Translations under genes and position numbers: made by a program | In this document: positions 39,837 through 60,766 of the stretch, one piece after another | Layout of the letters: each line of letters begins with the position of its first letter | How positions within the stretch are numbered: the first letter of the stretch is position 1 | Notes under the pieces: model-generated | What the model was told of the DNA's origin: nothing | The model's database searches: none | Seen by the model: the letters and a program-made list of their open reading frames with translations, nothing else | Sequence record: LR694611 | DNA from: Escherichia phage rV5_ev158 | Strand: one strand, 5' to 3' | DNA length: 64,000 bases

Positions 39837-40052
39837 ATGAAGATAGAGATATTTGGTGGAGCTGACAACACTCGTGGCCTGATTTACCTTGAATTCGATG
39901 AATCATACCTGCCAGAGGTGTTAAATATAGACTCTGTTGCTGAGGCTTTGGGAGTAAACCCTAAAGAACTCCACTCTTGTGCTGAGATCGATGGTTGGGA
40001 AGAGACCATGAACATTGATTTCAGTGAAGTAGAGGATGAACCGCTAGACTGA
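39837..40052 (+). CDS. small acidic protein (MKIEIFGG N-terminus); last plus-strand gene
   Basis: GAGGAG RBS; acidic tail EVEDEPLD. Confidence 0.45.
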   Translation: MKIEIFGGADNTRGLIYLEFDESYLPEVLNIDSVAEALGVNPKELHSCAEIDGWEETMNIDFSEVEDEPLD

Positions 40053-40748
40053 CACACAATCAGCTGCCCGGCTAAAGTGCTGGAAGCGCACCTATAACAC
40101 ATCTTTCAACTAAATTTCCTACCACCACAATCACTTACCTACCACACATGACTGTTTGCTTGTTTAGTGAGCAGTCATGCCTTGACATTCTTGCCTATCC
40201 TGATAAAATTAAGTTCTTCTCTTTTCTTTTACCGAGTAATTCGGGTTTTCTGTTCTCTTCGGTTTGAAGGGGTATGGAGATACACCTGAGTGAACAGGGT
40301 GAACAACCGAACCATTGGCTATGGCATTAGCATGGCGAAGCGGACGGGTGACGAAAGAGGGGCCGGAGGACACCAGTCACTGCCATATGATATATGGGTG
40401 ATAACCTGAAGAGTCTGAATAAGTGTTTAAGTACCAGTCAGAGGAAAAGGTGAATGGTAGCCGAAGGGGGATGGGGGGTTTCTTGTATCTTTAATTTGTA
40501 TATTATGTATACACTTGTAAACCAATCTCATCTGAATCTGTTTACCACACAAAGCGGATAGAGACAAATATCACCTATTAAACTTGAATTATTTATAGAA
40601 AATACCACAACACCACTTAAGTCTTTGATTTTACACACAAATCCTACAGATATTCAACCTCCATATTTAACATACTTGTAACATATTCCATACTCTACCT
40701 GTCTGATCAATTTCCCCAACTACATTCTCATATTTTCCCTGTCTGTAC

Positions 40749-40946
40749 TACCCCTGCCCCGCCGGGAGTCCCGTCATATCTGGCTTTCCAGCAAATATCA
40801 CACCCACAAATATCATTGCCTGAAGAGGGTTTCATCCCATAATACCTGCCTTACCTGAAGAGCGCTTCATACACCACGTAAATTTTTTAATTGACCTCCC
40901 CCTGCCCCGCCGGAGAGGTTGGCTTTTCCCACACAGACCTGAAGAG
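40749..40946. repeat. imperfect direct repeats, each starting CCCCTGCCCCGCCGG and ending CCTGAAGAG
   Basis: 9-mer CCTGAAGAG occurs five times between ~39755 and ~40946. Confidence 0.6.
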
Positions 40947-41522
40947 TCAGCCAGAAATATCTGAACAGGCCCAATTCTACCACGATTTTGACCTGACCTA
41001 CAGGGAGGCCCGAAGGGTCTAGCTTTCAGCTAGAGTCCTTGCAGGACCTACAGGAGCGCTGCCAGGCGGACGGAATGGGAATACTTCTCATTCTTATAAC
41101 AATTCTCAAATATCGAGACAGTGAGAGAAATTAATAGGCCAGGCCGTTCACACAGTGGCACAACATTTGCAACCTATTTTGGGTGGATGAATGAGAATAC
41201 CTATCATTGTGAGAACTGTTATCATTACGGGCAATTTAACATAATACCCATTATGCGCACCACCGGCGATACATACAGGGATTGATAACATGGGTTACTG
41301 TTTACGCACATAACAATTATATTTCTTACTATTTGTGTGGGATATAGTTAGCAGCCGATAGATTAGATATTAACCTGCAGACTTCTGACCGTCCAGACGT
41401 CTAAACGCCCACACACCAAGGATTATACATACACTCCTGAATGTAAACAGGGCCGCAAAAATGCTACCATACAAGCTTGTAAATTTTTCATGCAGCACTT
41501 GACAAAGAGGAGAAAAACTTGT

Positions 41523-41648
41523 CTGACATAATGTGACCTAACTGACACAACATGACACTTTTACACACCTATTAGTTTACACACTGGATTGTTTACATTC
41601 CTGATTGTTCACATGCTAACCATTTACATGATTGACTGTTTACACACC
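41523..41648. repeat. iteron-like short repeats: four TGACA-type at ~10 bp spacing, then five TGTTTACA-type at ~16 bp spacing
   Basis: read directly from sequence in ORF-free region. Confidence 0.5.
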
Positions 41649-41656
41649 GATAATCA

Positions 41657-41950
41657 GCCATGCCATTCGTTTGCATGAAAACAATTAACAAGATAACAAT
41701 CGACAAGTTAATAATCTTTCGCTGGCTATGCCAGGTGACTAGGTCACCCCTTCGGGCGTTCCTATGACATAATATAAAAGCAGGGCAACTATTAGCAGAT
41801 CTATAGTTGCCTTGCTTGTTATGTCATGATTAACTAAATACAAGGCAACTATGATCTGATTAATAGTTTGCAGACAAACTATCACGGGGGTGATGGTTAC
41901 TGCTTTTATATTATGTCGCGACTCCGTCGCGCCATGCCATTCGTTTGCAT
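41657..41950. repeat. composite dyad-symmetry element: 20-bp direct repeats flanking an 18-bp perfect inverted repeat and internal palindromes
   Basis: GCCATGCCATTCGTTTGCAT at ~41657 and ~41931; GACATAATATAAAAGCAG (41766-41783) inverted at 41901-41918; internal hairpins GGCAACTAT/ATAGTTGCC, GGTGAC-TAG-GTCACC, CGCGAC-TCC-GTCGCG. Confidence 0.6.
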
Positions 41951-42558
41951 AGTTGCCTTATTGTTACGAATAAAACAATTGCATTGTTAATGATTTCTTA
42001 TCTTTCTCTTAGTCATCTAATGATTCCAGTCAGTATAGTAATGTACAGTAAACATTAGACGACTAAAGATTTCTCTGTTTATGATAACTCATCTTGATAA
42101 TTTCGGACTGTTTACGAAAAATGTTGACACCTGAGCTGATTTATGTTATGCAGTTTACACGAATAATTATTTTATGCAGGTATTGACTATTCCGTTATTC
42201 TGTGGTTGGAATAAATACTTTGCAGGCTATAGAATGGCGTGCGTACGTGAATTCTGAGATCTGGCGGCTATAGTTATACTCGATTTTTCGCGTAGAACAC
42301 GCTTTCGATGCTGTGTAAGTGTATGACTTATAAAGATTTTTAGTTGTTGACAAGATATTGGAGATGTGCATCAGGTTAAAATTTGTGCAATAGCGGCATT
42401 ACGTGCACTTTTGGGAGAGAAAACGGGTAAAAATGGACTTGCTACCACACAATGAAAAATTATGCAATAGTTATTTTCCATGTATATTTGTACAGTATGT
42501 GGGATTGATGGCTAGTCAATTATTCCACTTGCCAGGTAGGGCCGTTTATGGTAGGAGA

Positions 42559-42590
42559 AGAGCAGACAAAAAGAAAGGGGCCTAAGCCCC
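42559..42590 (-). terminator. intrinsic terminator for the minus-strand block (GGGGC-TTAG-GCCCC then T-run on minus strand)
   Basis: hairpin ~20 nt beyond the stop of gene 42611..43030. Confidence 0.55.
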
Positions 42591-42610
42591 TTGATAATTC
42601 AGTTAAAAAA

Positions 42611-43030
42611 TTATAATGATTCGTATATTTCAAAAATCCGATTTGCCAGGTCGTTACGGTAGCGGAATTTTTCCTCACGTTTGATCATAAGATCTTTATA
42701 GCCGTACTCTTTAAGCACTTCATTAACTTTATGGCGGCATACTTTCATATTATCCTGCGCGTCACCAATAAATCTGTTGCTATGGTGCATGGCTTTAATT
42801 TCTTCTTCCAGGACCAGGGCAACTATGCGGACCGGATCAAGCTGATAGGCGGTAACATCCATGCGGCATTGTAAACGGCTTTTTACGTCTGCCACCGGAT
42901 ATACTGCAACCTCTTCCCCGTCAACATTGATAATAATTAGTTTACCATCGATTTCGAATCCTTTCGCCGCCGGACCGTGACAAAAAGCGTTATCAAAGCT
43001 ATATGCCGGATTATTAGATTTAATGTTCAT
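42611..43030 (-). CDS. hypothetical protein
   Basis: minus-strand ORF; TTGACA-N17-TATATT promoter-like sequence upstream on minus strand. Confidence 0.5.
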   Translation of the reverse strand: MNIKSNNPAYSFDNAFCHGPAAKGFEIDGKLIIINVDGEEVAVYPVADVKSRLQCRMDVTAYQLDPVRIVALVLEEEIKAMHHSNRFIGDAQDNMKVCRHKVNEVLKEYGYKDLMIKREEKFRYRNDLANRIFEIYESL

Positions 43031-57867: not shown

Positions 57868-58491
57868 CTAAAAGTATTCGTAGAGGTATCCATCGGGGGC
57901 TGGAATTTTTTCATGAATGTAGTAATCAACACATATTCCGGTTTCTCTTCTACAAGAATTGTGGGATACCCATTCTTTAAGAACGTTTCCATTCATGTCC
58001 AGCCTTCTTACATTTTTACACCGTCTACCGCTGGTGCTTCTATGCAACAGAATATCCTCCGTCTGCTTGTCTTTATTTTCTCCCCAGGTAGTTAAACGGA
58101 TATTATCAAAAGAGTACCCTTTGAAATCATCTATCCTGTCACAAGAAGGCTTTTTCCTTTTGTCGTATCCGCTGGCTACCCACTGATCATACAACTCTTT
58201 GTAACCGTTCAGGTATAGCCACTCCTTAAACTCTTTTTTGGTGTAAGTCGGAGGAGGGTGGCCTCTTTGCTTGCTGTTGCACTTTTGAGCCTTGTACAGC
58301 ACGCGTATTACACCTTTTTCTGAAGAGTCGTGGGAAAATTGGTCAGCCTCCTTGCTGGCCTTCTTGCAACACTCTTTGCACTTATTAAGATGACCGTCAG
58401 ACATCTTTGGGTGTTTGTAGAACTCGGAGAGGTTTTTCACCTCTCCGCACTTTATGCACCTCTTACAATGCGTGGATTCTGCTTTTGCCAT
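57868..58491 (-). CDS. putative homing endonuclease-like protein (N-terminal zinc ribbon)
   Basis: CKRCIKCGEVKNLSEFYKH...CKEC N-terminus typical of phage mobile endonuclease-associated zinc ribbons; catalytic motif not securely identified. Confidence 0.4.
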   Translation of the reverse strand: MAKAESTHCKRCIKCGEVKNLSEFYKHPKMSDGHLNKCKECCKKASKEADQFSHDSSEKGVIRVLYKAQKCNSKQRGHPPPTYTKKEFKEWLYLNGYKELYDQWVASGYDKRKKPSCDRIDDFKGYSFDNIRLTTWGENKDKQTEDILLHRSTSGRRCKNVRRLDMNGNVLKEWVSHNSCRRETGICVDYYIHEKIPAPDGYLYEYF

Positions 58492-59734
58492 ATTGCAAAC
58501 CTACCGGAGCGAAAGGTATGTCATCACAGAAGTCATACTGCGCCGGATTCTGACCCATCGGGTCATCTTCCTCATCATTTACAGGAGGAGCGTCTACAGT
58601 GTTTTGCTGTGGAGCTGCTTCCTGTTTGGCAGCCTGAGGTTCTTGATGGTCAGTTGACCCAGCACCGTTCTTGATCCAATCGTACAACGGCTCAGCCAGA
58701 TTAGTCAAGACATCTTTTGCTTCTGCAGTAATTGCCGCTGCAAAATCATCAACTTTCGTTTTCTTGTCAATACGGCGACAAGCGTTCAACACCGCATTAC
58801 CGACACTGGCACCTACTTCATCTTCAGTTCGGTTGGTGGCTTGAGCATACTCTTTCTTAAGCTCAATGGTGACTACGTGCAGTGTTTTAGCCACACCTAG
58901 TGGGTCGTCTACCTTAAACCCGCGATCCAGGATGATTTGCAACGCATTGATGCTATGTCCCGTCTCCACACCAATAGGGTCGTAAGAGGATTTACGCTTG
59001 CCACCAGAGCCTTGAGTGCCGTTCTCTGCCTTAGGTGGATAGGCTTTGAAACCGCTGATAATGTTTCCGGTGTCTTTGTCAACAATGGCTGCAACACGAC
59101 CACCTACCACCAGGTCTTTAAGCTGCTCATCAGTAACAACCATGGCACCTTCGCCAATCTTGTGGTCATTAACAGTAACCACGTTGCCAACAATCTGAGT
59201 CACATCGCCATAGATGCGTAAAACGTCCTGATTGGCATTCTGCTGAGGTTTCTGCTTCTGGCCTTGTGATTGTGCACCTTGTTGCTGTTTTTGCTGCTGA
59301 GTCGCTGCTGGAGCCTCTCCTGCACCCAGCTTGACCATCTTAGCCAGTGAGCCTTTGTAATAGGTCTTACCGTTATGCTCGTTTGCCTTCAAAGGGATAT
59401 TTACGATCCATCCCGGCGTTACGGTTTCCCACTTGTCATCAATTTTAACAGAGACAGAGTCTTGATGACCAGGTTTAAGCAGCTTATCACCCATACTGAT
59501 CCAAACTTCTTCACCACCTTGAAGCAGGTTATCAGAGGAATCCAGTTCAGAAATCAGTAAAGAGATGGTGTGGCTGGATTCAATTTTCTTACCTTGCCAC
59601 ACAGTGGTTTTAATACCTGTTGTAGGATCAGCACCTTTGATAGGTTTGATGCTGACACGTTTAATCATGCCGTGAGCCAGTAAAACAGTTTCACGCGGAT
59701 TCATCGGGTTAGCGAATTGTTGAATAACGCTCAT
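58463..59734 (-). CDS. putative ssDNA-binding protein-like
   Basis: Gln-rich linker and acidic DFCDDIPF near the C-terminus resembling the SSB DDDIPF tip, but followed by 15 more residues. Confidence 0.4.
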   Translation of the reverse strand: MSVIQQFANPMNPRETVLLAHGMIKRVSIKPIKGADPTTGIKTTVWQGKKIESSHTISLLISELDSSDNLLQGGEEVWISMGDKLLKPGHQDSVSVKIDDKWETVTPGWIVNIPLKANEHNGKTYYKGSLAKMVKLGAGEAPAATQQQKQQQGAQSQGQKQKPQQNANQDVLRIYGDVTQIVGNVVTVNDHKIGEGAMVVTDEQLKDLVVGGRVAAIVDKDTGNIISGFKAYPPKAENGTQGSGGKRKSSYDPIGVETGHSINALQIILDRGFKVDDPLGVAKTLHVVTIELKKEYAQATNRTEDEVGASVGNAVLNACRRIDKKTKVDDFAAAITAEAKDVLTNLAEPLYDWIKNGAGSTDHQEPQAAKQEAAPQQNTVDAPPVNDEEDDPMGQNPAQYDFCDDIPFAPVGLQYGKSRIHAL

Positions 59735-60099
59735 TATTTGTCTCCTTGTTCTTCGTTAGTGTTCGCCGTGTGTGCAAACCCTGCCTGAATTAATTTGTCC
59801 TGAACTTGAGCCAACAGGCCCATTGCAAAACTTGTGGTCCCAGAGAGAGCCATCAGCATATCTCGTTGTTGAGCTACCCAACCTAAGGCATAGTCCAAAC
59901 GACGATATTTTTCTTCTTCGCGCAGAGCCTGAAATAATTGTTCAGCCTCCGGTTGTTGTGTGAGCTCCTGAAGTCTTCCCATGAAAGAAGAAAGCACTAG
60001 CAAAAGAGACACTTGATCTTTACTTAACCCTAAGAAAAATTCTTGAGGTTGTTCTTGCTCGTTCATCGCAACCGACGCTTGATCGTTCATTTGTTCCAT
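59734..60099 (-). CDS. hypothetical protein
   Basis: ATGA-type coupling to downstream gene. Confidence 0.5.
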   Translation of the reverse strand: MEQMNDQASVAMNEQEQPQEFFLGLSKDQVSLLLVLSSFMGRLQELTQQPEAEQLFQALREEEKYRRLDYALGWVAQQRDMLMALSGTTSFAMGLLAQVQDKLIQAGFAHTANTNEEQGDK

Positions 60100-60182
60100 T
60101 ATGGAATCTCCGATTTTATTTGAACAACATAGAAGGAGACACTATTTTAGCATCCCCTTCTGTAAATTACAATAGGTATTTG

Positions 60183-60428
60183 TTAGCCAATCACTTCAAA
60201 AGTTCCCCAATTCCCGTCCAGCAGGCAGGTGATCGGATCCCCATCGTCGTCAAAGATTTCAAAGTTTTCAGCATCCAGGATGTGGCCCTCGAACACAATA
60301 CTTTCGTCGCCACCACCAGAAATAACAGCGTATTCCTTACCTTGAGTCAAGTTTTGACACCCTTTGCCACCAAAACCTACTTCCACACAACGTACTTTCT
60401 GTCCTGCGCGAGCAACTACTTCAGCCAT
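60183..60428 (-). CDS. hypothetical protein
   Basis: minus-strand ORF. Confidence 0.45.
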   Translation of the reverse strand: MAEVVARAGQKVRCVEVGFGGKGCQNLTQGKEYAVISGGGDESIVFEGHILDAENFEIFDDDGDPITCLLDGNWGTFEVIG

Positions 60429-60445
60429 CTTAAGGTCTCCTGATA

Positions 60446-60766
60446 TTAATCGTCAAGTTCAAAATAGATTTTAACAGCTTCATCAAAGATTGGGATCCCG
60501 ATGTTGTTGATAAGCTGCCAAACTACCATATCTTTACCTGGGTCTGGGAGAATGTCAACCTTCCTCCATGCGCTGTATATCCAGTTTGGACCACCTTCTG
60601 CACTAACTGGCAGATTTTCACCAGCCTCCTGCAGATACTTATACAGCAAAAGATATTCTGGATACTCTAGAACACTGTCCTCTGTAGTATATAGCAGTTC
60701 ACGGTATACTTTTAAGAACCCTGCTGGGGTAATGTTTTCAGTCTTCATTTGCCGCTTCTCCTGCAT
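60446..60766 (-). CDS. hypothetical protein
   Basis: minus-strand ORF. Confidence 0.45.
   Translation of the reverse strand: MQEKRQMKTENITPAGFLKVYRELLYTTEDSVLEYPEYLLLYKYLQEAGENLPVSAEGGPNWIYSAWRKVDILPDPGKDMVVWQLINNIGIPIFDEAVKIYFELDD

Follow-up and report, generated by a model that had tools for sequence, protein, structure and literature searches.

A conserved folded element, probably a structured RNA or an origin signal, in the non-coding box of rV5-like coliphages

What occupies the 2.5 kb of gene-free DNA, the "non-coding box", that separates the convergent genes 163 and 164 of rV5-like coliphages, and which function might be attributed to the repeat element it holds? The DNA analysed here is a stretch of 64,000 nucleotides (the window, to which all coordinates refer) of Escherichia phage rV5_ev158 (sequence record LR694611), an rV5-like Vequintavirus with a genome of 138 kb. 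In the description of rV5 the replication origin was not located and the gap was labelled merely 'non-coding'; the GC skew changes here, but the genes change direction at the same place, which confounds this signal (PMC3606486). A literature search on the origin, non-coding RNAs or transcriptome of rV5-like and related phages yielded nothing relevant. The replisome genes are T7-like, comprising a family-A DNA polymerase and a helicase/primase, and no recognisable initiator protein for such a replisome was found; the small proteins and ORFs flanking the gap gave no domain match in Pfam, and no initiator-like gene is evident beside it. The original prediction regarded the element either as a long cruciform-forming origin-type structure or as a small non-autonomous inserted element.

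Results

Layout of the gap

The (+)-strand genes stop at 40052 and the (-)-strand genes at 42611, and the DNA in between, originally described as ORF-free, indeed contains only short spurious ORFs of at most 60 aa. The features of the element and its surroundings are compiled in Table 1.

Table 1. Features in and around the repeat element of the gene-free gap
Feature	Position	Strand	Remarks
Array A: conserved anchor AAAACTTGTCTGACA, then ~10-bp TGACA(Y)AAT-type repeats	41514-41557	(+)	per-phage dissection
Array B: about six TTTACA/TGTTTAC(R) units, period ~16 bp	41558-41656	(+)	repeat family at 41560-41644
Left 20-mer box GCCATGCCATTCGTTTGCAT	41657-41676	(+)	position 7 is C or A, G in one relative; missing only in V18
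Array C: ~11-bp AACAA(G/T)NTAA units, number variable	41677-41716	(+)	variants across relatives compared
Optional ~46-bp GC-rich hairpin module: CTGGC-tat-GCCAG, GGTGAC-tag-GTCACC, CCC-ttcg-GGG	41717-41762	(+)	
Predicted closing stem, 5' arm (left arm of inverted repeat)	41766-41783	(+)	unchanged in 22 sequences; homologous arms covary elsewhere
Predicted long arm of Y-shaped fold	41785-41871	(+)	predicted fold and alignment
Short hairpin AACTATCAC-GGGG-GTGATGGTT	41877-41898	(+)	U.G wobble on (+) strand
Predicted closing stem, 3' arm (right arm of inverted repeat)	41900-41917	(+)	U-rich on (+)
3' hairpin GCGAC-TCC-GTCGC	41918-41930	(+)	directly after closing stem; unique in genome
Right 20-mer box	41931-41950	(+)	unchanged in 22 sequences
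GGCAACTAT-type unit (ATAGTTGCCTTATTGTTA), fourth exact copy	41949-41966	(-)	overlaps right 20-mer end
T-rich/AT-rich tract, 70% AT	41972-42221	(+)	downstream of element on element's strand

As originally proposed, a 20-bp direct repeat marks both ends of the ~290-bp segment. It occurs in exactly two copies, 100% identical to each other; no further match with up to 3 mismatches was detected in the 64 kb window (0 expected from 100 shuffles) and none with up to 4 mismatches in the rest of the 138 kb genome. Both copies are kept in 17 of 18 sampled relatives, the exception being phage V18 which retains the core. Since both are conserved at a spacing varying from 213 to 339 bp, for which no phasing is apparent, the 20-mers represent separate conserved boxes and not a target-site duplication. 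The left box borders the variable leader formed by array C on its 5' side, and the right box lies directly 3' of the fold described below. Bracketing direct repeats were rejected as a universal feature of the related elements in other lineages (see below); some Phapecoctaviruses carry a 12-mer, TCATCATTAGCA, in this arrangement and three other lineages have none. A borrowed host site was likewise rejected on the basis of the absence of the 20-mer from one genome per species of 185,579 bacterial and archaeal species and the lack of any match to the 294-bp element in 5,426 complete E. coli genomes.

The repeat arrays are highly variable. Array A differs in copy number and sequence among relatives and is poorly conserved, and array B, with 2-12 units and an identity of 72-74% in relatives, is the most variable stretch of the gap. 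Array C always closes with a -10-like hexamer placed 1-4 nt 5' of the next module, which reads AATAAT here (41710-41715) and TATAAT or TACAAT in relatives and, judged from its sequence, is a possible promoter of the structured element. Sigma-70 promoter-like matches were not enriched over shuffles and are inconsistent from lineage to lineage. The GC-rich hairpin module is present in 52 of ca. 117 relatives and has moved to another site and strand in the metagenomic contig L029. On the other side of the element, ca. 20 bp 3' of the right 20-mer, begins a 250-bp tract which exceeds all other windows of this size in the 138 kb genome in AT content and is a candidate unwinding or R-loop zone; a T-rich 3' flank of the element is common to all lineages.

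A highly stable predicted fold

The inverted repeat GACATAATATAAAAGCAG/CTGCTTTTATATTATGTC is complementary at 18/18 positions, its arms lying 116 nt apart. The original prediction was correct on its perfection and on the left arm, but placed the right arm at 41901-41918, one base off its real position. The smaller palindromes postulated inside the repeat are present as well, spanning 41778-41817 (41778-41792/41803-41817; 15 nt, 93%), 41803-41852 (41803-41814/41841-41852; 12/12) and the short hairpin, and another palindrome, the 3' hairpin, follows just beyond the right arm. The 9-mer GGCAACTAT has nine exact copies in the genome, four of which are concentrated here inside 175 bp in alternating orientation. 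Two comparisons with known signals can be briefly reported. The arms carry TATAAAAG, resembling the T4 late TATAAATA, but a late promoter was rejected because only 9 occurrences exist in the genome and these are not systematically located 5' of genes. A by-eye comparison with dif/Xer-like sites and DnaA boxes gave no convincing match.

Secondary-structure prediction, proposed with the original prediction as a check, revealed a fold far beyond chance (z = -8.8 and -9.0 versus dinucleotide shuffles). With an MFE of -87.6 kcal/mol, compared to a genome mean of -46.2 (sd 8.2) for 200-nt windows, the element is unsurpassed in fold stability among the 200-nt windows of the 138 kb genome (rank 1 of 3,450 windows); the second most stable one (~532-770) is not a comparable palindrome. 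In the predicted structure, which comprises about 165 bases, the inverted repeat forms the stem that closes a Y-shaped three-way junction consisting of a long arm and a short hairpin, and is succeeded by the 3' hairpin. The long arm contains two GATC sites, exact GGCAACTAT 9-mers at 41784+, 41803- and 41844+, a degenerate one at 41863-, and a variable apex (41815-41840) which harbours a 33-bp insert in rV5, C9 and phita32. Its exact pairing is uncertain because 41812 T>C and the common variant 41796 C>A, carried by 9 of 22 sequences, disrupt the predicted long-range inner stems and suit an alternative local hairpin (41764-41827). Several mutually exclusive pairings are near-equal in stability (-83 vs -76.8), and the ATAGTTGCCTTATTGTTA unit can pair with 41835-41853 in an alternative fold. 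Comparison with Rfam 15, which took in 6S, Y RNA, pRNA, retron msr and ribozymes, gave no match at E<=1 over 8 kb and, in scans of 321 nt, only generic hairpin matches of 13-19 bits versus thresholds of 41-249.

Conservation and covariation

Far from lacking conservation, a possibility with which the original prediction had reckoned, the core (41800-41949) is shared by 19 phages at an identity of 98.7-100%. No other part of the gap is as well conserved, and the core at least matches the neighbouring CDS, the flanking arrays being 72-88% identical. As the Vequintavirus core is nearly invariant, covariation could be shown only in the homologues of other lineages. Homologous elements occupy the same place, a long gene-free gap, in two myovirus subfamilies, the Vequintavirinae and the Stephanstirmvirinae. 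Syntenic versions were found in phAPEC8/phi92-like phages and in a bridging metagenomic contig, L183; those of Phapecoctavirus, Justusliebigvirus and the Klebsiella phage KP13-26 lie beside the same flanking gene. The order of the helices is the same in spite of a different sequence. Comparison of Vequintavirus with Phapecoctavirus gaps by blastn (word size 7) gave no match, and the homology emerged only via structure, the short hairpin and contig L183.

The closing stems of the syntenic elements are fully complementary despite the sequence change (AAGCCA/TGGCTT, AACGCA/TGCGTT, ACCGCA/TGCGGT), and the arms of L183, GACATAATAACGCTGAG, match at 17/17 positions. The most clearly homologous helix across lineages is the short hairpin, in which 6 of 9 pairs are changed on both sides and the loop measures 3-4 nt; L183 has the same GGGG loop on a compensated stem within the same topology. 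The 3' hairpin has a counterpart at the same place in L183 and, covarying, in the Stephanstirmvirinae (CGCTATG-ccggaca-CATAGCG), and L183 also carries a diverged counterpart of the right box (GCCATGTTATCGTTGC) 3' of its element. RNAalifold yielded 55 pairs, 10 of them compensatory. In an alignment of 8 elements, comprising only 7 distinct sequences and adjusted to fit the model, paired cells make up 97.1% compared to 90.2 +/- 0.8 in shuffles, and 13 of 55 pairs are changed on both sides compared to 4.8 +/- 1.5, a value matched by 0 of 500 shuffles; controls with slid register reached 27-55% pairing. Base pairs are thus kept by compensatory substitutions across the homologues, as in an RNA-like structured single-stranded element.

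Detection across subfamilies was modest. A covariance model built from the Stephanstirmvirinae elements only found its best full-length match in the 3 kb gap at 41758-41923 (20 bits, E 2.6e-4) in an unfiltered search of the gap, in which the (+) strand scored 20 and the (-) strand 18 bits; with default filters and 168 kb searched, no significant match was obtained in the window. In pattern searches, GGCAACTAT-N6-14-ATAGTTGCC matched 24 times in viral contigs, with only two true relatives among the matches, and the loose arm pattern AAAAGCAG-N105-135-CTGCTTTT gave only chance matches among the matches listed.

Strand bias

The fold is consistently better on one strand. All 17 of 17 distinct Vequintavirus cores fold better on (+), by 7.5 kcal/mol in the mean, and on the equivalent strand the MFE is better by 12-17 kcal/mol in the six Stephanstirmvirinae elements and by 8 kcal/mol in L183. 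On this strand, 11 pair positions contain 29 G.U cells vs 0 A.C cells; given the T>A and G>C skew of the 3' flank, mutational bias (C>T) may have contributed to this excess of G.U. Its unpaired positions are rich in A (122 A vs 60 T), which is typical of structured RNAs. The strand bias suggests a strand-specific single-stranded structure, either RNA or unwound DNA, and not a symmetric cruciform. Accordingly, the originally proposed cruciform or origin-type structure persists insofar as the element is folded, conserved and covarying across subfamilies, whereas its form as a symmetric double-stranded cruciform is disfavoured.

Discussion

The element is probably an undescribed structured RNA or replication-origin signal in the gap of rV5-like coliphages. 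As a more specific assignment we tentatively favour, with a confidence somewhat short of an even chance, a strand-specific folded cis-element of which this segment is the conserved core, most likely a (+)-strand structured RNA of ~150-170 nt, which might serve as leader or primer of an origin. We infer RNA rather than unwound DNA, the start and end positions and the origin function. With slightly more reserve, we consider that the element may be the first representative of a hitherto undescribed family, three-way-junction RNAs of ~150-170 nt which would either prime or license a transcription-dependent origin or act in trans on the host. In a first scenario, transcription would start just 5' of the closing stem and the RNA would fold and subsequently run into, or stop before, the AT-/T-rich tract; no canonical terminator is found 3' of the fold. 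The folded RNA might then act as leader or primer opening the DNA for the T7-like replisome at this tract, and the origin would be transcription-primed, comparable to ColE1 RNA II, the T7 primary origin or T4 oriF/oriG.

These known systems (the T7 primary origin consisting of phi1.1A/B and an AT-rich region) share with the rV5-like element a structured or promoter-proximal transcript, here a predicted one, directly 5' of an AT-rich tract, and transcription-primed origins also correspond to it in the family-A (T7-like) polymerase, the absence of a recognisable initiator and a single-copy non-coding cis-element. However, they are devoid of the conserved boxes and variable arrays, the three-way junction found here rests on a 15-18-bp AU-rich stem, and RNA II has no sequence or Rfam similarity to the element. 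The phi29 pRNA, a phage RNA of ~120-170 nt in which the 5' end pairs with the 3' end in a closing helix under a three-way junction, is alike in shape only; the element gave no Rfam match, rV5-like phages use a conventional terminase, and nothing ties the element to packaging. The minus-strand origin of M13/f1, plasmid ssoA, F-plasmid Frpo and the N4 hairpin promoters are likewise strand-specific imperfect hairpins of ~100-300 nt, which fold on one strand and tolerate G.T only there. Those signals operate, however, where a single-stranded stage is obligatory or where a virion RNA polymerase acts, whereas rV5-like phages are double-stranded headful-packaged myoviruses for which no such stage is known.

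As counter-signs to the RNA reading, the four exact, alternating GGCAACTAT units, the 20-mer boxes and the iteron-like arrays resemble protein-binding DNA sites. The locus might therefore be an origin or protein-bound control site acting at the DNA level, which we regard as unlikely but worth serious consideration. The 9-mers, 20-mers and arrays would be putative binding sites, the AT-rich tract would be the unwinding element, and the palindrome would reflect cruciform extrusion or just sites in inverted orientation. Besides the clustered 9-mers, the three upstream arrays of variable copy number and the adjoining AT-rich tract, the near-equal exclusive pairings are as repeated sites would yield, and the KP13-26 element lies beside four direct copies of GGTATTATTAGC. 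The architecture presumably resembles iteron origins and the palindromic HSV-1 oriL; iteron origins (lambda ori, theta plasmids) and HSV-1 oriL/oriS also combine motif arrays and inverted motifs around a palindrome with an AT-rich neighbour. They differ from the present element in that the latter displays a covarying fold with a strand bias consistent over five lineages, which is unexpected for a duplex cruciform or duplex sites. Moreover, the short hairpin covaries with its shape kept, for which pairing is a better explanation than co-evolving half-sites. Neither an adjacent initiator gene nor phased repeats are present, and the arrays are hypervariable and constitute the least conserved part of the gap, other than in iteron origins.

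The same structure, covariation and strand-bias evidence could also denote an independent gene for a small non-coding RNA which acts in trans, in regulation or anti-defence, and has no role in replication. In phAPEC8-like phages the fold strand is antisense to both neighbouring genes, so that the RNA would be an independent transcription unit, and the lack of an Rfam family implies that it would be a new family. We consider this improbable, because no convincing promoter or terminator was detected and because neither the 20-mers and the arrays, nor the extreme AT-rich tract, which accompanies the element in every lineage, nor the ~2.5 kb of gene-free DNA would be explained.

The element might conceivably be a bidirectional terminator or insulator between the convergent blocks 82-163 and 238-164, with an A-rich left and a T-rich right arm around a large hairpin. 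A bidirectional terminator between genes 163 and 164 was expected by the rV5 authors, who did not find it (PMC3606486). The arrangement agrees with that of intrinsic bidirectional terminators, in which an A-rich tract, a hairpin and a T-rich tract succeed one another between convergent units. The records of Murica and Alma annotate a (-)-strand terminator on the first hairpin, and a scan marks 41877-41898 plus ACTGCTTTTA as terminator-like on (+); only these two sub-hairpins loosely fit the form of a compact stem with a U-tract. The element as a whole, however, is 10x the size of the phage's own terminators, multi-branched and equipped with invariant loops. The real bidirectional terminator of this phage, a compact GGGGCC-AAAC-GGCCCC hairpin, occupies a 48-bp gap where the other pair of gene blocks converges, and dedicated terminators already precede the element on both sides, a canonical one for the (-) block at 42575-42592 and a weaker terminator-like site for (+) at 40232-40244. 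In addition, the element is kept in phAPEC8-like phages, whose flanking genes are co-directional and antisense to the favoured strand. A terminator function, which would leave the invariant loops, the 20-mers and 2.5 kb of conserved gene-free DNA unexplained, thus appears quite improbable.

Even less probable is a pac or site-specific recombination site, in which the 20-mer boxes would surround the region of cleavage or synapsis, comparable to P1 pac or SPP1 pacL/pacR. Two identical boxes ca. 270 bp apart, a structured centre and two GATC sites would be compatible with this function, and about 10 of 117 GenBank records open within ~2.5 kb of the element. However, Vequintaviruses are reported to be circularly permuted without a defined pac end (PMC8407724, PMC3606486), the terminase genes are ~45 kb away and the spacing of the boxes varies. 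A fixed genome end or pac site was therefore rejected, and the record starts near the gap probably reflect an annotation convention.

A MITE-like non-autonomous mobile element with the 20-bp repeats as target-site duplications, the second alternative of the original prediction, is scarcely credible and was refuted: direct repeats outside an inverted repeat and no encoded transposase are indeed shared with MITEs and IS-derived miniature elements, and the small GC-rich hairpin modules of the gap are polymorphic in presence (one being displaced in L029), but the arms stand back from the ends, by 90 nt on the left and 13 nt on the right side, all components have a single copy in the 138 kb genome, the two 20-mers persist in relatives while their spacing varies, and the core, which has syntenic homologues across subfamilies, surpasses the rest of the gap in conservation. 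The presence/absence polymorphism suggested as a check was not observed, the core being found in 117 of 117 related records and an empty site in none; terminal arms, empty sites and multiple copies, the defining MITE features examined here, are all absent.

Phages of the rV5, phAPEC8 and phi92 types rank among the broad-host-range coliphages isolated most often, and their use in therapy and biocontrol is widely proposed. Their "non-coding box" of 1.5-2.5 kb, so far without explanation, is now seen to contain a single, sharply bounded and covarying structure. If this structure acts as RNA, it would represent a new phage RNA family; if it constitutes the origin, it would offer a starting point for engineering these phages and would help to explain how a T7-like replisome starts in a phage without its own RNA polymerase.

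The fold and its modular surroundings

The 18-nt inverted repeat constitutes the closing stem of a conserved, covarying and strand-biased three-way-junction fold, completed by a long arm and a short hairpin and directly followed by a GCGAC-TCC-GTCGC hairpin. The original prediction of a 20-mer at both ends of the segment holds, with exactly two copies in the window and no further one with up to three mismatches (chance expectation: none). The inverted repeat is perfect as predicted, except that its right arm had been placed one base off; the enclosed smaller palindromes and the ORF-free surroundings (no credible ORF in 40053-42610) were likewise recovered.

Features of the gene-free gap, window (+) strand
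Feature	Position	Description
Conserved anchor	from 41514	AAAACTTGTCTGACA
Array A	to ~41557	TGACA-type repeats of ~10 bp
Array B	41558-41656	TGTTTAC(R) repeats of ~16 bp, 2-12 units
Left 20-mer	41657-41676	GCCATGCCATTCGTTTGCAT
Array C	41677-41716	~11-bp AACAAGNTAA units; -10-like hexamer always at the end
Optional GC hairpin module	41717-41762	~46 bp; in 52 of ~117 records
Core	41764-41966	
Closing stem, left arm	41766-41783	GACATAATATAAAAGCAG
Long arm	41785-41871	
Short hairpin	41877-41898	
Closing stem, right arm	41900-41917	CTGCTTTTATATTATGTC
Right 20-mer	41931-41950	GCCATGCCATTCGTTTGCAT
AT-rich tract	from ~41972	

Structure prediction, the check initially proposed, folds 41766-41917 with z-scores of about -9 on either strand, and the region ranks first in stability among 3,450 overlapping 200-nt genome windows (-87.6 kcal/mol versus a mean of -46.2, sd 8.2) at a GC content of only ~37%. 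The alternating orientation in which GGCAACTAT-type units recur also permits a nearly equal alternative fold (-76.8 versus -83), in which 41764-41827 form a local hairpin and 41835-41852 pair with 41949-41966. Moreover, the natural variants 41796 C>A (9 of 22 sequences) and 41812 T>C disrupt the long-range inner stems, while falling into the loop of the local hairpin or improving it. The modelled closing stem and short hairpin are thus firm, and the internal pairing of the long arm is not. Second in stability among the 200-nt folds of the genome (-85.1 kcal/mol) is one near the window start at ~532-770; it is not a large palindrome, has no match in an Rfam search and precedes the most AT-rich 60-150-bp stretch of the genome (about 734-875).

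The module order is identical in every Vequintavirus. Conservation within the gap is highest at 41800-41949 (98.7-100% identity, at least that of the adjacent coding sequences) and lowest at 41550-41750 (72-88%); variation inside the core is confined to the long-arm apex and a few loop positions. At this apex (after 41818; alignment columns 56-88) an insert of 33 bp, TTAACATCCTCGAGACGAAGGCTATGCCTGAGT, distinguishes rV5, C9 and phita32, and insert-bearing cores show a larger fold-energy difference between the strands (12-13.5 kcal/mol). A related 34-bp piece is found elsewhere in SYGMH1, right after the left 20-mer, and a GGCTATGC(C) core is common to both pieces and the 46-bp module. The latter consists of CTGGC-tat-GCCAG, GGTGAC-tag-GTCACC and CCC-ttcg-GGG, is cleanly missing from other records and resembles, in its behaviour, a very small cassette that moves or recombines; in the metagenomic contig L029 (1164-1207) 44 bp of it recur at 100% identity ~2 kb away, on the opposite strand and upstream of a gene. 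The inverse of its CCCTTCGGGC, GGCCCGAAGGG, occurs in an indel-polymorphic GC-rich piece at 41000-41049, which is covered in only ~12 of 19 relatives (84.5% identity).

The window shares 99.9% identity with phage rV5_ev168, and matches to the region occur in 119 phage records. Eighteen UNVERIFIED "Campylobacter phage" entries (MG0656xx; D1, C9, A141 and others) show 92-98% identity to E. coli Vequintaviruses here and probably represent mislabelled or contaminant coliphages. Shigella phage CM1 (3001-5205 of its record) and Escherichia phage I29 possess ~500-550 bp more DNA within the gap than the window (a 1701-bp query matches over spans of 2205 and 2255 bp), annotated with small ORFs in CM1. 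At the left end of the gap, ~200 bp (40250-40450) are 98.5-100% identical across relatives, like coding sequence; either a small gene missed by annotation or a further non-coding element may lie here. Beyond it, at 40487-40736, comes a second AT-rich tract of top rank.

The predicted feature is real and non-random, although the bounds of the functional unit differ from those proposed and the reading as a small inserted element is wrong. The 294-bp segment is present in 117 phage records, and an empty site in none. The 20-mers do not represent an insertion duplication, as both are kept in 17 of 18 sampled relatives at spacings of 213-339 bp, which vary because variable repeats fill the DNA from the left 20-mer to the core. 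Nor is the inverted repeat terminal: its left arm starts 90 nt after the left 20-mer, and its right arm stops 13 nt short of the right 20-mer. Neither the 20-mer nor the 18-nt arm nor the GCGACTCCGTCGC hairpin recurs elsewhere in the 138 kb genome; the 20-mer is absent from bacterial and archaeal genomes (one per species, 185,579 species), and 5,426 E. coli genomes contain no match to the 294-bp element.

Homologous elements in diverged phages

A 139-aa protein encoded beside the gap has counterparts of 84-89% identity in phAPEC8-like and phi92-like phages (Stephanstirmvirinae), where the gene likewise adjoins a gene-free gap of 1-1.5 kb. Blastn between these gaps and those of Vequintaviruses reveals no similarity. 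Each nevertheless contains a large inverted repeat around smaller hairpins, and across lineages the closing stems change in sequence while complementarity stays perfect. The short hairpin is recognisably one and the same helix in all compared elements. L183, a 140 kb metagenomic contig sharing 91% identity with the window in the flanking protein, bridges the types, since its arm begins like the window's and continues like that of JohannJBalmer.

Closing stems and short hairpins of the compared elements
Element	5' arm	3' arm	Short hairpin
Window	GACATAATATAAAAGCAG	CTGCTTTTATATTATGTC	AACTATCAC-GGGG-GTGATGGTT
L183	GACATAATAACGCTGAG	CTCAGCGTTATTATGTC	GATAATAACAC-GGGG-GTGTTATTGTC
phAPEC8	GCTAATAATAAGCCA	TGGCTTATTATTAGC	ATAACCATC-GGT-GATGGTTAT
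phiWec188			ATAACTATC-GGT-GATAGTTAT
JohannJBalmer	GCTAATAATAACGCA	TGCGTTATTATTAGC	
KP13-26	TGCTAATAATACCGCA	TGCGGTATTATTAGCA	ATTACTATT-CCT-AATAGTAAT

For six Stephanstirmvirinae elements RNAalifold yielded 55 pairs, 10 of them compensatory. Among eight elements (7 distinct; a small sample with an alignment fitted to the model), 97.1% of the cells were paired versus 90.2 +/- 0.8 in shuffles and 13 pairs were changed on both sides versus 4.8 +/- 1.5, values reached by none of 500 shuffles; slid registers gave 27-55% pairing. A covariance model trained on Stephanstirmvirinae elements only recognised L183 (32 bits, E 3e-7). Run with default filters over 168 kb it returned nothing significant; when the window's gap was searched with the filters off, the two top full-length matches both fell exactly on 41758-41923, with 20 bits on the (+) strand (E 2.6e-4) and 18 bits on the (-) strand. 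The case for homology of the window element thus rests on its position and topology, on the short hairpin and the bridging arm, and on a modest model score, not on plain sequence identity. Assignment to a known RNA family was rejected, as none in Rfam matches.

Strand preference

On the strand equivalent to the window (+) strand, as assigned by synteny and helix order, the alignment contains 29 G.U versus 0 A.C cells at 11 pair positions, and the reverse on the other strand. Independent folding of both strands favours the same one throughout, by 12-17 kcal/mol in the six Stephanstirmvirinae elements, 8 kcal/mol in L183 and a mean of 7.5 (range 0.9-15.5) kcal/mol in 17 of 17 distinct Vequintavirus cores. 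Its unpaired columns are A-rich (122 A versus 60 T), opposite to the expectation from a C>T bias inside the element; A-rich unpaired positions are typical of RNA loops. Such polarity is predicted by a one-strand fold and not by a double-stranded cruciform or duplex binding sites. Of the origin-type cruciform first suggested, the conserved, covarying structure hence persists, but the double-stranded form does not account for the polarity. RNA is the ordinary candidate for the folded strand, a fold in unwound DNA being also possible. Given the T>A, G>C skew of the 3' flank, mutational bias may also contribute to the polarity.

Functional implications

In the rV5 genome paper the gap is drawn as a grey "non-coding" box, and the origin was not locatable because all skew changes coincide with changes in gene orientation (PMC3606486). 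A T7-like DNA polymerase and a helicase/primase are among the gene products of the phage; the small proteins flanking the gap have no Pfam domains. On the (+)-equivalent strand, the element is preceded by the variable arrays and the -10-like hexamer, and its 3' flank is T-rich in every lineage (39-49% T). In the window, the most AT-rich 250 bp of the whole genome (41972-42221, 70% AT; fifth in rank at the 100-150-bp scale) start ~20 bp after the right 20-mer.

We tentatively favour, as the most likely mechanism, a structured (+)-strand RNA that would fold and act in cis at a transcription-primed origin. A duplex origin or an array of protein-binding sites ranks next; it is less probable but still a serious rival in view of the clustering of the 9-mers, the 20-mer boxes, the arrays and the direct iterons of Klebsiella phage KP13-26, and it leaves the strand polarity unpredicted. 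In KP13-26 (1335-1482 of its record) four direct copies of the closing-stem arm sequence GGTATTATTAGC follow the element at 33-61-bp intervals, an array seen in none of the E. coli phages. A free-standing RNA acting in trans comes third and appears rather unlikely.

The gap separates convergent gene blocks, ending in rV5 with ORF 163 and ORF 164, a location inviting a terminator reading; the rV5 authors expected a bidirectional terminator there and found none (PMC3606486), and the Murica and Alma records annotate one on the first hairpin. Against this rival, both gene blocks have their own terminators ahead of the element, the genuine bidirectional terminator of the phage takes the form of a compact GC hairpin within 48 bp of intergenic DNA, and the element persists beside co-directional genes, where the favoured strand is antisense to both. 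A pac site is unlikely given the reportedly circularly permuted genomes (PMC8407724, PMC3606486), the 45 kb distance to the terminase and the variable spacing of the 20-mer boxes. Deposited genomes are opened in excess inside the gap or within ~2.5 kb of it (~10 Vequintavirus and many Phapecoctavirus entries; the ECO111 5-P record stops precisely at the left 20-mer), most likely an annotation or assembly convention for permuted genomes. The large terminase gene of rV5_ev168 (58095-60525, outside the window) is annotated as two joined pieces with an endonuclease VII-like ORF inside, which suggests an intron or intein-type insertion.

The fold is part of a modular non-coding control region that is common, in diverged form, to the Vequintavirinae and Stephanstirmvirinae.
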